A stretch of 64,000 bases of DNA, taken from the sequence record PP456878.1. The stretch is one strand, 5' to 3'. Source of the stretch: Pseudomonas phage vB_PaePAO1-KEN19. The notes under the pieces were generated by a model. It was not told the origin of the DNA and made no database searches. It saw only the letters and a program-made list of their open reading frames with translations. Position 1 is the stretch's first letter. Every line of letters starts with the position of its first letter. Shown piece after piece: positions 3,827-26,387 of this stretch. The position numbers and the translations under genes were made by a program.

Positions 3827-6142
3827 TTATGGACCAGTGGGTGGAGTTGGTTCAATATGTTTCACACGTGTACCCCTGCCATTCCATAATAAGGAGTTAT
3901 CAGGTGAATCTCCCCAGAACATGACTTGATTCAAAGTATTTACTGTCACAGTGAAATTATGCCCTGCTGCCAATTGAATATATGGTCCAGCATGGTCATC
4001 TACGTCACATTGTCCATTATCGTTATTTCCGAAGAAAGCGATTTGGCCATCACCATACATCACTGTGTAATGTGTGTACAATCCTGATACACCACCAATT
4101 GGGTTACTATTTACATTAGCAGTTACATCGTTACCACGTCCATCAAACCATAATGGCGAGATAACCATAAAGGATGTATCATTACCATTGCGGATGATTT
4201 CCATGACATGTACTTTACTAGATTCAGATGTATAATCTTCAGGAGCAACTAATGGATCTATTGAATGCATGATGATGTGGGTGCAACCAATTGACATTGA
4301 ATCAATAACATGATTCAATGGTTTAATTGTGTTGTTAACAAAATCATTAAAAGCACTAATGAAGCTTGGGATACCATAAGCTGTATATACATAGTCAGCA
4401 CTGCTAGCTGGACCTATGTTTACAACAACTGTCATTTCACCAGGATAGGTGTCTTCAGTATTGGTAAATATAGCCCATGGTTTATTAACAGCAGGTACTA
4501 ATAGTTCAGATGTACCACCTTTAACACAACGATAAAGATCTTGGTGCTCAAAGATTGCTGATTCACCTGTTGAACTAAAGATGAACTTACCTGTTAACAT
4601 ATACAGAGATGTTTTATTCGCCCAGATACTTGAAGGAATATTTCCATCTATAGGTGCAGTCCATTCTACTGGAATTGGTATCATCTCATCGACTTTAGTT
4701 TCATCGATACATGCTGACTTGGCTACACCATTCTCTACCCAATACTGACCATATCGGTGAGATACCCAGGATTCCTGAGCATATCCTAAACGCTCTGGTA
4801 TAACAGCATAAGGGTTAGCTGGCGATTTAGGATGAACTACACAGTCATCTCTGACAATTGTACAATCCCACCAACTATTAAATCCAGCATAAGCATGGAA
4901 ACCTGCCGTGACACCTTGAATTAATTCCATTCGGTCATATTCACTAGTATCATCCACAATAACTGGTAATGTATCTATCTTTAATTGTACATCATCCCAG
5001 TTAGCGTTATAGCCGGCTGCCATCCTTTCAATATCACCGAATGATGGGAATTCATCTTTCCATTGCTCAGGTGTTAATCCACCAAAGGTAGAAGCATCAC
5101 CACCACCTAGTCCTGCCAGTAGTTGATCAACTTGTGTTTTAGTATATGCATTAACCTGGTCGGCAGTTACAACGTGTGGGTTATTTTCATTACTAATATG
5201 TTGATTAAGTTTCTCTTCTAGTTCATTAATTCTAGAAGCATCACCAATCTGACTATAGAGAATAGATGCAGTATAAGGTGTTAATAATACCGAATCATTA
5301 GTTACGTCTACCGCAGTAGTTGGTGTTGCAGCTGGGTAGTTAGGAACATTACCTAAATTAATATCAGCTGCTGTTAGACCGTGTACGTTACCCCTAGCCG
5401 CTATGTGGGCATTAAGCGGATTTACGGCAAACTTATTAACTAATGCTAATGTACCACGTGGGTTCGTAAATAGATCATTACGATTAGCATCTAAATGCTG
5501 TTGATCACTTGCCATTGCATAGTTTGGAACTAGTGACAAGCCAACTTGTGCTTTAGTTACCCTGTGTGGGTTATTATAATCACGAATATGTTGGTCAGTT
5601 GTACCGGCAGCCGCAGCACGGATAGCTTCTATAATCCCTTCGATACCTTCAAGAATCTCTTTACTACCTACTAATGAATCAATAGGTTGATTGTGTTCTA
5701 AAGGTGGGAAAGAAGCAGGTAATGGACCAATTGCACCCCATGACCGAATCAAGGGGTTATACTGTTTGCGTGCAAGCTCAGCCAGGATCTGCTGATTACT
5801 AAATCCCCATTGCCCACCTATTGTACGATAATCCATACCAATCATAGCGTTTATCGAACGCTTCATGATACGTATAGATCCAGCGATAGGTCTACCTATC
5901 GATTCCATAGCTTCAATAAACCAATGCCCAATAAGGTAATCAACACCTTCTACATAAGTCTGATTGGTCAGTGGGTTAAATAGTCGTAATGAATCTACAA
6001 AGAAAGGTGCAGCAAATGGTATAATGAAATAATAATCATCACCATCTGGTACCTGGAGAGTTTGGCGCTCACCTTTAATAAAGTTCTGGGGATTTGTTCC
6101 ATTGGGGTCGAATGGATATAACCCAGTTTCACCGTGGGCCAT
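3827..6142 (-). CDS. Large fibre / baseplate-periphery protein, 771 aa. N-terminal fibre-family domain, NPH repeats, and a C-terminal RCC1-like beta-propeller. Resembles my recollection of phiKZ gp131.
   Basis: N-terminus LYPFDPNGTNPQNF. Three NPH…GL..VPNY repeats. C-terminus has RCC1-like YGDGQIAFFGNNDNGQCDV. The length 771 aa matches phiKZ gp131 as I remember it. Confidence 0.55.
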   Translation of the reverse strand: MAHGETGLYPFDPNGTNPQNFIKGERQTLQVPDGDDYYFIIPFAAPFFVDSLRLFNPLTNQTYVEGVDYLIGHWFIEAMESIGRPIAGSIRIMKRSINAMIGMDYRTIGGQWGFSNQQILAELARKQYNPLIRSWGAIGPLPASFPPLEHNQPIDSLVGSKEILEGIEGIIEAIRAAAAGTTDQHIRDYNNPHRVTKAQVGLSLVPNYAMASDQQHLDANRNDLFTNPRGTLALVNKFAVNPLNAHIAARGNVHGLTAADINLGNVPNYPAATPTTAVDVTNDSVLLTPYTASILYSQIGDASRINELEEKLNQHISNENNPHVVTADQVNAYTKTQVDQLLAGLGGGDASTFGGLTPEQWKDEFPSFGDIERMAAGYNANWDDVQLKIDTLPVIVDDTSEYDRMELIQGVTAGFHAYAGFNSWWDCTIVRDDCVVHPKSPANPYAVIPERLGYAQESWVSHRYGQYWVENGVAKSACIDETKVDEMIPIPVEWTAPIDGNIPSSIWANKTSLYMLTGKFIFSSTGESAIFEHQDLYRCVKGGTSELLVPAVNKPWAIFTNTEDTYPGEMTVVVNIGPASSADYVYTAYGIPSFISAFNDFVNNTIKPLNHVIDSMSIGCTHIIMHSIDPLVAPEDYTSESSKVHVMEIIRNGNDTSFMVISPLWFDGRGNDVTANVNSNPIGGVSGLYTHYTVMYGDGQIAFFGNNDNGQCDVDDHAGPYIQLAAGHNFTVTVNTLNQVMFWGDSPDNSLLWNGRGTRVKHIEPTPPTGP

Positions 6143-10289: not shown

Positions 10290-12470
<2,181 letters not shown>

Positions 12471-12477
12471 GGAGCGA

Positions 12478-13353
<876 letters not shown>

Positions 13354-25074: not shown

Positions 25075-25311
25075 ATGTACTATGGTAATGTTTATATTAT
25101 CTTTATTGGTGGTTTATTAATATTTATCCTAGGATTGGTATTTGGAGGAATACTGGGAGAAGAGAACAATAACGTATATAAACTCAAATCCCAACAATTT
25201 GAATACTGCGTTAAAAATAAACAATCAAAAAATAATGACAGTGAAAATATCCAAGTTATTAAAGTATGCGCAGAGTCTATTGTACTCCTATATCCGACTA
25301 ATGAAAAATAA
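25075..25311 (+). CDS. Small membrane protein (78 aa) with an N-terminal transmembrane helix.
   Basis: The sequence VYIIFIGGLLIFILGLVFGGILG is a hydrophobic helix. The ATG overlaps the stop of the upstream gene. Confidence 0.45.
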   Translation: MYYGNVYIIFIGGLLIFILGLVFGGILGEENNNVYKLKSQQFEYCVKNKQSKNNDSENIQVIKVCAESIVLLYPTNEK

Positions 25312-25328
25312 AGCATTTAAGCCCTCAT

Positions 25329-25353
25329 AGGAGGGCTTTTATGTCGTATGGCT
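25329..25353 (+). terminator. Terminator hairpin (AAGCCCTC-atag-GAGGGCTT) followed by TTTATG.
   Basis: Hairpin plus T-run after 25075..25311. Confidence 0.65.
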
Positions 25354-25472
25354 AATATGCTAGTAGATAATGAATAAAATCGATTATAGAGCAAATTAGA
25401 AGGTATTAAAGGCATAAAGAAAGTCTATCTCTAGACTTATTATTTTTTAATTAAAAAAAATATAATCTACAC

Positions 25473-25494
25473 TGTGTCTCCTTTTAGGGAGACA
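25473..25494. promoter_or_regulatory. Hairpin CTGTCTCC-uuuuag-GGAGACAG in the non-coding hub.
   Basis: 8-bp stem. Its UUUUAG loop is related to the UUUAGCGG loops of two downstream hairpins. Confidence 0.4.
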
Positions 25495-25648
25495 GTATGT
25501 ATTAGCTAACGCTATTAGAATAATGCTAATATTGTTTATTATTAGAATAAGGATATACCTTCGGTATAGTTTATTATGAAATAAAAGCCCCTACGGGGCG
25601 ATCCGATTCATCAGTTCCACATTAGGTAATATTCATGAGTAATATTTG

Positions 25649-25679
25649 ATTACCAGTATTACTCAATGATACTGGTAAT
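25649..25679. repeat. Perfect 11-bp inverted repeat ATTACCAGTAT-(9 bp)-ATACTGGTAAT. Candidate protein-binding operator or origin element.
   Basis: Exact palindrome in an AT-rich non-coding stretch. A third ACTGGTATT copy lies at 25765-25773. Confidence 0.5.
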
Positions 25680-25836
25680 AATATACTAGGTTATTAACAA
25701 TATGTATTGATTATTCTGATTAAGTCAAATTAGTTAATAAACAAATCAATTATCAACGAGTGATAACTGGTATTGATTACTAGCTAAAGAGATTAATTAG
25801 GATATCTACATGAGGAGTCGCTACCCCATGTATACT

Positions 25837-25898
25837 GGAGTGTCTCTTTAGCGGGAGACTTAACTCCACTTGGGAGCCGCTTTAGCGGGCGGCTCTCA
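25837..25898. promoter_or_regulatory. Two adjacent hairpins with different stems but the identical 8-nt loop TTTAGCGG (GTCTC/GAGAC and GAGCCGC/GCGGCTC). Candidate structured RNA or regulatory element.
   Basis: Loop identity with stem covariation, non-coding position, A-run after the second hairpin. Confidence 0.45.
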
Positions 25899-25924
25899 CT
25901 TAAACAAAAAAAGAATTCAGATAA

Positions 25925-25948
25925 GTCCCTCTCCTGAAGGAGAGGGGT
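25925..25948 (-). terminator. Terminator for 25955..26260 (CCCTCTCC-tgaa-GGAGAGGG, followed by T7 on the minus strand).
   Basis: Hairpin plus U-run in the minus orientation. Confidence 0.65.
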
Positions 25949-25954
25949 TGTTTA

Positions 25955-26260
25955 TCATAGGCTTCTCCTTTCGGTTACATAGAACTTCTTCTGATCCATG
26001 TCAGTGTCCGTTACTATGAAATTGTCGAAGGGGTTGATGGATACGGCTAAACTTGCGTTGTTGACGTATCCTATCGTAGGACCAGCCCAATAACCAATGA
26101 AGTGACCTTTACGATCTCGACATTGGATAACATTATCAGCGTGTATTTTCGCAACTGACATGCTATGGGTTGATCCATCGGGTCTCTTGAAAAAGAAACC
26201 CACATCCTGCATTCTGTGCAGGTCAGGGCTAACATTGTTAGCGGTAACTGGAATTAACAT
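25955..26260 (-). CDS. Hypothetical small protein (101 aa).
   Basis: ORF. Confidence 0.45.
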   Translation of the reverse strand: MLIPVTANNVSPDLHRMQDVGFFFKRPDGSTHSMSVAKIHADNVIQCRDRKGHFIGYWAGPTIGYVNNASLAVSINPFDNFIVTDTDMDQKKFYVTERRSL

Positions 26261-26387
26261 GATGGTTCCTCTTGTTAATCCAAGCCCATTTGGGCGAAAA
26301 TGTTGAGTATTTTTTACTCAACGGCATATAGTCCTACTGCTGCAACAGTAGGGCTAATTCTTTTATTCTTAAATGTTTAACTGAATA

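Follow-up and report, generated by a model that had tools for sequence, protein, structure and literature searches.

Here, we have analysed a gene-free stretch in Pseudomonas phage vB_PaePAO1-KEN19 (sequence record PP456878.1) within a window of 64,000 nucleotides (nt), which is the whole stretch of DNA that was examined. The gene-free stretch is very probably a composite intergenic zone of converging transcription in a phiKZ-type jumbo phage, with a stand-alone small-RNA gene as its core. According to phiKZ transcript maps, the non-virion RNA polymerase would start at promoter P060 (G25704), 17 nt 3' of a TACT box; the majority of transcripts would stop at 25901, giving an RNA of ~198 nt (~180 nt on northern blots of phiKZ RNA), and a minority would read through for ~715 nt to a bidirectional terminator at ~26419. 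The last hairpin of the RNA may set or protect its 3' end, either by hairpin-dependent (U-tract-independent) termination or by blocking trimming by a 3'-5' exonuclease. Its conserved tip could be the recognition site for a protein, a palindrome upstream of the promoter could be an operator-like site modulating P060, and the remainder of the stretch appears to hold terminators for both strands. A preliminary description of this DNA, made from the letters alone, had pointed out three hairpins (hairpins 1 to 3), a palindrome and short repeats. Its observations were largely correct and its interpretation half right, in that a small RNA with a selected tip is supported and an origin or partition region is not.

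By sequence, the window comes from a phiKZ-like jumbo Pseudomonas phage. Among relatives drawn from the GenBank phage collection, region 25200-26100 was 100% identical to vB_PA32_GUMS, PaSz-1, PaZh_1, PhiPizzaParty and PA_ZH1, and 97.8-97.9% identical to phiKZ (97.8% over 631 nt), the plus strand of the window corresponding to the minus strand of the phiKZ record. The stretch is located between PHIKZ117.3 (25075-25311, +) and the PHIKZ117.2/117.1 or ORF117 locus (ORF, open reading frame), the flanking genes are as in phiKZ, and the genes for a DnaB-like helicase and the major capsid protein lie 5' of it. As described before, it is the largest ORF-free stretch in the window: 25331-25954 (624 bp) is the largest internal part without an ORF of at least 50 amino acids (aa), and its GC content is 33%. 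It is also structured beyond chance. Compared with 500 dinucleotide shuffles of the region, we found five hairpins with stems of at least 7 bp (null 0.6, P<0.002), a longest inverted-repeat arm of 11 (null 7.2, P=0.008) and eight repeated 9-mers (null 2.45, P=0.018). The view that it is not a transfer RNA (tRNA) cluster was borne out by ARAGORN, which found 0 tRNA genes. The best matches in an Rfam scan reached 13-23 bits against gathering scores of 36-70, and the E-value mode gave chance-level matches only. IMG/VR scans with the helicase protein and the hairpin 3 sequence as queries returned no usable match.

The core of the stretch corresponds to a locus that has been mapped experimentally in phiKZ. 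Using ONT-cappable-seq, Putzeys 2024 (PMC10914365; bioRxiv 10.1101/2023.10.13.562163, supplement) placed the P060 start at phiKZ 114922(-) and classed it as a middle promoter; the same source states that P060 was also detected by dRNA-seq (Wicke et al. 2021). A 3' end, T053, was reported at phiKZ 114725(-), defining the 197-nt transcript TU089, together with a 715-nt transcript, TU088, that continues to T051 at phiKZ 114207 (bioRxiv 10.1101/2023.10.13.562163). By Grad-seq, Gerovac 2021 (mBio, PMC8545117) recovered the RNA as "5'UTR_p40" (UTR, untranslated region), a species of ~180 nt on northern blots that sediments apart from ribosome-bound phage mRNAs, and proposed premature termination by its second stem-loop. 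When transferred by alignment, phiKZ 114922 falls on G25704 and phiKZ 114725 on T25901, both identical bases. The orthologous RNA in the window would thus be 197-198 nt long, with the start-site context, the two terminal hairpins and the position of the 3' end as in phiKZ. It had been suggested that the hairpins might belong to a small non-coding RNA and that transcripts should be sought across 25.3-25.96 kb; the published maps place TU089 at 25704-25901, and hairpins 2 and 3 form the 3' domain of this northern-validated phiKZ non-coding RNA (PMC8545117; PMC10914365).

The promoter itself conforms to the phiKZ middle class, whose motif is an A-rich tract followed by TACT ~20 nt 5' of the start (Wicke 2021). 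P060 carries AATAATATACT, and the distance from its TACT to G25704 is equal to that in P027 and P033. It differs from other phiKZ middle promoters in having a perfect 11-9-11 palindrome immediately upstream and a mirrored TACT box on the opposite strand, and the palindrome sequence was not common to the few others inspected. The 12 nt on the 3' side of hairpin 1 (ACAGTATGTATT, 25492-25503) are a near-repeat of the P060 initiation region (ACAATATGTATT, 25697-25708), and no start site is mapped at the copy beside hairpin 1 in the published phiKZ data. The locus is 97.8% identical in phiKZ and in the window. The published papers treat TU089 as the 5' UTR of p40 with two stem-loops, whereas four could be folded here, and they discuss neither the shared hairpin tip nor the palindrome.

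The predicted fold of the 197-nt RNA had a minimum free energy of -67.9 kcal/mol, compared with -41.8 +/- 3.9 for shuffled sequences (z=-6.7). It comprises four stem-loops: SL1 (25709-25806), SL2 (25807-25832), SL3 (hairpin 2, 25836-25868) and SL4 (hairpin 3, 25871-25898). Seven sites in the RNA vary among genomes; they lie in a bulge, in the SL2-SL3 linker or at a position where U.G becomes C-G, or they weaken one pair. Hairpin 2 (GTCTC-TTTAGCGG-GAGAC, 25842-25859) is nested in a GGAGT/ACTCC helix (25837-41 / 25863-67), and hairpin 3 (GAGCCGC-TTTAGCGG-GCGGCTC, 25874-25895) can be extended to 10 pairs (25871-25898). The 8-nt loop of the preliminary description is closed by RNAfold as two U.G pairs around a UAGC tetraloop. 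While the positions given earlier for hairpins 2 and 3 were exact, hairpin 1 as then written, CTGTCTCC, is absent from the window. Small corrections also apply to the repeats: the third copy of ACTGGTATT starts at 25766 rather than 25765, the copies of TATTGATTA are at 25705 (not 25704) and, as stated, 25771, and the A8 run is present (25453-60), whereas the supposed T7 run is T6 (25443-48). The two copies of TATTGATTA and that of ACTGGTATT are transcribed as part of the RNA, where they belong to the long AT-rich SL1. The coordinates of all features are collected in Table 1.

Table 1. Features in and around the gene-free stretch (window coordinates).
Feature	Position	Strand	Evidence
Intrinsic terminator of the helicase-gp117.4-gp117.3 operon, AAGCCCTC-ATAG-GAGGGCTT then TTTATG	25319..25344	+	fold -13.3 kcal/mol, z=-3.9
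Hairpin 1, TGTCTCC-TTTTAG-GGAGACA, terminator-like	25475..25494	+	sequence, terminator scan, fold
58-nt island, 90% identical in PA1C-like phages	25534..25591	.	alignment
Minus-strand intrinsic terminator, GCCCC-GTA-GGGGC then UUUUAUUUC	25578..25599	-	terminator scan
Perfect palindrome ATTACCAGTAT-N9-ATACTGGTAAT, candidate operator or cruciform	25649..25679	.	sequence
P060 core (A-rich element and TACT 25684-87; start G25704)	25680..25704	+	phiKZ start site 114922(-) via alignment
Small RNA, ortholog of phiKZ "5'UTR_p40"/TU089	25704..25901	+	published phiKZ start and termination sites, northern blot
Tandem pair of UUUAGCGG-tipped hairpins; SL4 at RNA 3' end, without U tract	25836..25898	+	sequence, fold
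Hairpin CCCCTCTCC-TTCA-GGAGAGGG with T7 run further downstream; likely ORF117 terminator, also forms on plus strand	25905..25949	-	scan, fold
ORF117, 101 aa	25955..26260	-	intact in 46/46 phiKZ-like genomes, 92-100% aa identity

The mapped 3' end (25901) is 3 nt past the extended stem of hairpin 3. With its 10 pairs plus two U.G pairs (-20 kcal/mol, z=-5.1), this hairpin, T053 in phiKZ, resembles intrinsic terminators and hairpin-protected small-RNA 3' ends, in which a GC-rich hairpin of 10-12 bp stands just before the mapped end. It differs from intrinsic terminators in that no U tract follows; the tail is CACUUAAACAAAAAAAG (CACUUAAAC). A terminator scan of the region did not list hairpin 3, and T053 is not classed as intrinsic by Putzeys, where its type is left blank (bioRxiv 10.1101/2023.10.13.562163). 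Some further features of the RNA were observed. In the 3' arm of SL1, GCUAAAGAGA (25783-25792) is a perfect 10-nt complement of UCUCUUUAGC (25843-25852), which covers the 5' arm of hairpin 2 and most of its tip, and the GCUAAAG core of GCUAAAGAGA also matches the tip of hairpin 3; an alternative pairing or pseudoknot could form between the two segments. SL2 (ACAUGAGGAGUCGCUACCCCAUGU, region 25807-25851) is similar to the MS2 operator only at the Rfam chance level (13 bits, E=10). In addition, a mini-ORF of seven codons (MYTGVSL) has its Shine-Dalgarno sequence and AUG sequestered in SL2 and ends at the UAG of the hairpin 2 tip; the mini-ORF is kept in 12/12 genomes, with a variable codon 3 (T/S/I).

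Together, hairpins 2 and 3 make up a tandem duplication (27 nt, 74% identical, spaced 34 nt) with compensatory swaps of two pairs (T-A to C-G; T-A to G-C) and no change in the tip. A third UUUAGCGG-tipped hairpin was found at phiKZ 12041-12011(-), where it coincides with the mapped 3' end T003 (Putzeys); unlike hairpin 3, it has a U tract. In phage SL2 and in fMGyn-Pae01, the T003 stem shows an independent compensatory change of U-A to C-G, again with the tip unchanged. For TTTAGCGG, 8 occurrences were counted in the phiKZ genome against 6.4 expected; three of them cap hairpins (2, 3 and T003), and exact-tip hairpins with stems of at least 5 bp, three in phiKZ, appeared in none of 20 genome shuffles. 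Looser variants of the tip were barely above the shuffled level (27 vs 15.7 +/- 4). The earlier argument that identical loops on covarying stems indicate selection on the loop thus stands for hairpins 2 and 3 and can be applied to T003 as well, a third locus with covariation of its own. Covariation with homologous phages had been named as a decisive check, and compensated stem pairs appear in three independent comparisons, among them that of T003 in SL2 and fMGyn-Pae01. The argument fails for hairpin 1, which does not belong with the other two: its loop, UUUUAG, differs from UUUAGCGG, and its stem cannot be said to covary with that of hairpin 2 because the GTCTC/GAGAC core is common to both. 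The tip is probably under selection and is likely a recognition site. Alternatively, the loops may match through common descent alone, the hairpins being ordinary copied terminators and the tip having no role of its own. The tandem duplication, the stem common to hairpins 1 and 2, the single copy in PA1C, the ordinary hairpin-plus-U-tract structure of T003 and a possible recent exchange of the T003 region between phage groups would all agree with such an origin. However, hairpin 3 and T003 differ at 6/7 positions of the 5' stem arm and are identical at 8/8 tip positions, stem pairs are compensated in three separate comparisons, and the shuffled genomes contained no exact-tip hairpin as against the three observed. 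We therefore regard shared ancestry alone as a possible but rather doubtful account.

What the selected tip might do is a more speculative question. We tentatively propose, with low confidence, that a protein of phiKZ or of the host reads the UUUAGCGG-tipped hairpin as a phage-specific RNA signal, which would define or protect the U-tract-less 3' ends of non-coding and antisense transcripts and gate antisense transcription over small cassette genes (ORF117 here and ORF024 at T003). It could act by making the non-virion RNA polymerase terminate at the hairpin or by blocking an exonuclease. The boxB sites of lambda and P22 and the operators of MS2 and PP7 are similar in presenting a fixed tip on variable, compensated stems, which is also the pattern found here; the UUUAGCGG tip sequence, in contrast, matches none of them, and recognition by a protein is at present a candidate role only. 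No mention of the tip sequence was found in the literature. Pairing of the tip with the major capsid mRNA was considered and rejected, as the complementarity is only 8 nt, which is the chance level for an 8-mer. A separate observation concerns the interval of ~160 nt between T004 and T003 (phiKZ 12005-12168 (-); PA1C 4040-4203), which is 95% identical between phiKZ and PA1C, above the adjacent coding gene, and folds into several hairpins, the last being the UUUAGCGG-tipped terminator. It may be another conserved non-coding RNA; it is wholly or partly missing in U1B, PA02, PA_ZH1 and FBPa36.

Downstream of the small RNA, RefSeq phiKZ places PHIKZ117.2/117.1 (p40/p39) on the plus strand at 25955-26306, whereas nearly all other annotated records sampled (11 phiKZ-like genomes) carry the minus-strand 101-aa ORF117 instead. 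Of 12 genomes, four have a p39 frame (PHIKZ117.1) broken by a nonsense codon: the window phage and Churi at codon 3, ANB1 and 124.01 at codon 16. ORF117 is preceded by a middle-promoter-like box and a Shine-Dalgarno sequence and followed by a hairpin and T7 run. Since the downstream plus-strand ORFs look spurious, TU089 is better read as a stand-alone small RNA with antisense read-through. ORF117, and not p39/p40, is probably the real gene, with the RefSeq annotation on the wrong strand; this read-through would then be antisense to ORF117, so that the last hairpin would gate antisense transcription. Thus, the label "5' UTR of p40" is likely a misnomer, and TU088 is likely antisense to ORF117. 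Under the competing view, p40/p39 are controlled in cis by premature termination of the RNA, acting as an attenuator- or riboswitch-like 5' leader. This is close to the published reading, as both Gerovac (PMC8545117) and Putzeys (PMC10914365) regard the RNA as 5'UTR-derived, and RefSeq PHIKZ117.2 and 117.1 do lie downstream on the same strand and are spanned by TU088. However, the interrupted p39 frames of four phages, the integrity of the minus-strand ORF in 46 genomes and its annotation in most other records, and the small size of p40 (31 aa, entirely antisense within ORF117) do not agree with a leader. The mini-ORF, with its Shine-Dalgarno sequence and its end in the hairpin 2 loop, would suit an attenuator, but it is the most variable part of the RNA, and no riboswitch match was present in Rfam. 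A leader function is improbable on these grounds.

Several points count against the reading of the stretch as a small-RNA gene with a selected tip and antisense read-through. The published expression data are those of phiKZ, carried over to vB_PaePAO1-KEN19 by the 97.8% identity. That an equal fold is predicted in 12/12 aligned genomes is weak evidence, because the divergence is only 2-3% (46 close relatives). In the five stem versions of the tip family, both partners differ in all 7 of 7 pairs, pairing holds in 91% of cells and none of the 8 tip positions varies, a count that is partly circular because the set was selected for being hairpins. One stem pair of hairpin 2 is lost without compensation (G25842T) in half of the genomes. 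In the 300 kb of PA1C scanned, the T003 homologue was the single UUUAGCGG-tipped hairpin, and the motif family must therefore be very small. As for ORF117, the ratio of nonsynonymous to synonymous codon differences was 0.95 in the ORF117 and p40/p39 frames and 2.9-6.9 in the other four, from which it follows that one of the two frames codes; codon statistics cannot separate ORF117 from p40, as these frames share wobble positions, and ORF117 alone is never interrupted. A start site for ORF117 was mapped in neither published phiKZ data set. No homologues could be identified outside phiKZ-like phages, a search of 5.8 billion proteins returning only its own cluster, and its AlphaFold model was of low confidence (predicted local distance difference test, pLDDT, 42).

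The preliminary description likened the stretch, with its iteron-like repeats, to an origin or partition-like region or to a regulatory switch region, and the origin or partition part could not be maintained. The repeats said to resemble iterons are two copies only, located within the transcribed RNA and varying in phages that are 98% identical (T25712C, T25768G). Direct repeats were present only as two-copy families, not as a regularly spaced array of at least three. Cumulative GC and AT skew rise steadily to one maximum, at 265 kb, where gene orientation flips, and no turning point could be observed at phiKZ 114.7-115.3 kb. With regard to a partition site, the neighbouring proteins have no Pfam match and fall only in PHROGs of unknown function, and the exact half-site of the palindrome is found once elsewhere in the genome. 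Moreover, PA1C-like phages lack, in the syntenic gap, a segment of ~300 bp that contains the palindrome, P060 and the RNA. A replication origin, either of the iteron type or primed by an R-loop as in T4 oriF/oriG, or a partition site would be in keeping with the adjoining DnaB-like helicase gene, with the presence of a palindrome and direct repeats and with an island of 58 nt conserved in PA1C-like phages. On the other hand, the sole skew extremum tracks gene orientation, the region does not rank with the genome's lowest-GC windows, the half-site is not reiterated, the repeats vary between near-identical phages, and no initiator or ParAB gene is adjacent. We thus consider an origin or partition site very improbable. 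The T4 origins oriF and oriG consist of a middle promoter and a downstream DNA-unwinding element, and P060 is similar in being a mapped middle-class promoter followed by ~100 bp of 24.5% GC near replication genes. Beyond this resemblance nothing speaks for an R-loop origin at P060, which has only a slight chance of being correct: skew gives no signal, PA1C-like relatives have not conserved the promoter and AT-rich segment, and the RNA is stable, structured and abundant in free form, sedimenting with RNA polymerase and 30S fractions (PMC8545117), and not a hybrid.

The perfect 11-9-11 inverted repeat described at 25649-25679 was confirmed. It occupies -55 to -25 relative to the P060 start and abuts the A-rich element of the promoter; the published transcript maps thus explain its location, namely that it borders a mapped middle promoter. 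An imperfect extension gives 20-nt arms that are 85% complementary and reach the TACT boxes on both sides. The arms were invariant in 12 genomes, whereas the 9-bp spacer (25660-25668), TACTCAATG in the window, reads as the exact reverse complement, CATTGAGTA, in four of them (FBPa36, SL2, PA7 and 30-1). A reversed spacer between unchanged arms indicates an inversion between the arms and implies that spacer orientation is not critical; it suggests that the palindrome folds, at least now and then, into a hairpin or cruciform. Chloroplast non-coding DNA is the classic setting for small inversions of this kind, in which a hairpin-loop spacer is flipped between short inverted repeats. The present case is alike in that a 9-bp spacer is flipped and both arms are kept, and differs in being located in a promoter-upstream palindrome of a phage; template switching or cruciform processing would be candidate mechanisms. 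A regulon defined by the palindrome half-site was considered and rejected, as only one other exact copy exists in the 280-kb phiKZ genome.

Other observations were made around the palindrome. On the minus strand at 25641, the mirrored A-rich-plus-TACT box consists of AAATATTACT followed by 17 nt ending in AATG and is divergent from P060. Its predicted start, at ~25620, would lead into the minus-strand terminator (25599-25587) and yield an RNA of ~42 nt. ONT-cappable-seq misses RNAs shorter than ~80 nt (bioRxiv 10.1101/2023.10.13.562163). AT-rich palindromes of other sequences precede a few other phiKZ starts or genes, including an 11-9-11 repeat at 70871-70901 before late promoter P037 and a perfect palindrome with 15-bp arms at 108975-109014 before PHIKZ106.1.

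The left half of the stretch (25312-25648) is most simply read as a two-strand termination zone, which leaves the degree of conservation of its 58-nt island unaccounted for. The terminator of the helicase operon lies 8 nt past the gp117.3 stop. Hairpin 1 may also be a terminator: phiKZ has only one further hairpin with a UUUUAG loop (218182+), and this has been mapped as intrinsic terminator T098. The role is assigned to hairpin 1 by inference, since the published phiKZ maps contain no transcript 3' end there. The T6/A8 tract was considered as a canonical early promoter and rejected, because it does not fit the AGAT-N2-TATATTAC consensus of the published list and no start is mapped in it. The island is far more conserved than its surroundings. 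Identity in this comparison drops to 64% in the flanking helicase gene and 50% in gp117.4, and no alignment is possible for the remaining intergenic sequence. It contains a hairpin (TATACC-TTC-GGTATA, 25554-25568), in which PA1C has a compensatory swap of T25554-A25568 to A-T, and two direct repeats (TATTAGAATAAKGMTA x2, TATWGTTTATTAT x2), and it includes the U/A tract of the neighbouring minus-strand terminator. At the position of that terminator, PA1C has a different GC stem and the same U tract. A second copy of the island core (TAATAGAATAAGGACTCTACCTTGGAAT vs TATTAGAATAAGGATATACCTTCGGTAT) was observed at phiKZ 214136-214160 (+), just past the bidirectional terminators T096/T097. The adjacent gp117.3 (PHIKZ_p41, window 25090-25285) is mostly deleted in T2P, ANB1 and SL2 and is therefore dispensable.

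The situation at ORF117 is paralleled at the T003 locus. ORF024 (88 aa; phiKZ 12264-12530, +) and its PA1C homologue QBX32293 (3681-3947, -) are 86% identical in nucleotides and 82% in amino acids, mostly with conservative changes, and in RefSeq 024.1/024.2, on the other strand, have taken the place of ORF024, just as happened at ORF117. Paralogy of the two proteins was rejected, as BLASTP finds no alignment between them. The 5' and 3' DNA flanks of the two genes, by contrast, are homologous (window 26283-26358 and 25897-25950 vs phiKZ 12241-12169 and 12590-12538), sharing GCCCAAATGGGC, a covarying hairpin, a terminator, and TTAAACAAAAAAA plus a hairpin. The flanking modules of ORF117 also surround the PA1C homologue of ORF024, so that the locus looks like a swappable gene cassette.

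The promoter, the small RNA and the terminators have already been described and mapped experimentally in phiKZ, and our analysis therefore adds little as a discovery in this respect. What is new is the family of UUUAGCGG tips, found on covarying stems where two RNA 3' ends have been mapped, the inverted spacer of the palindrome upstream of the promoter, and the case for small-RNA read-through antisense to a real minus-strand gene, ORF117. The invariant tip, common to a second RNA 3' end, offers a defined target for pull-downs or mutagenesis. Should both ORF117 and ORF024 be real genes, two RefSeq re-annotations would have to be reversed, and in the case of ORF117 the RNA would have to be studied as an antisense or stand-alone regulator rather than as a 5' UTR.

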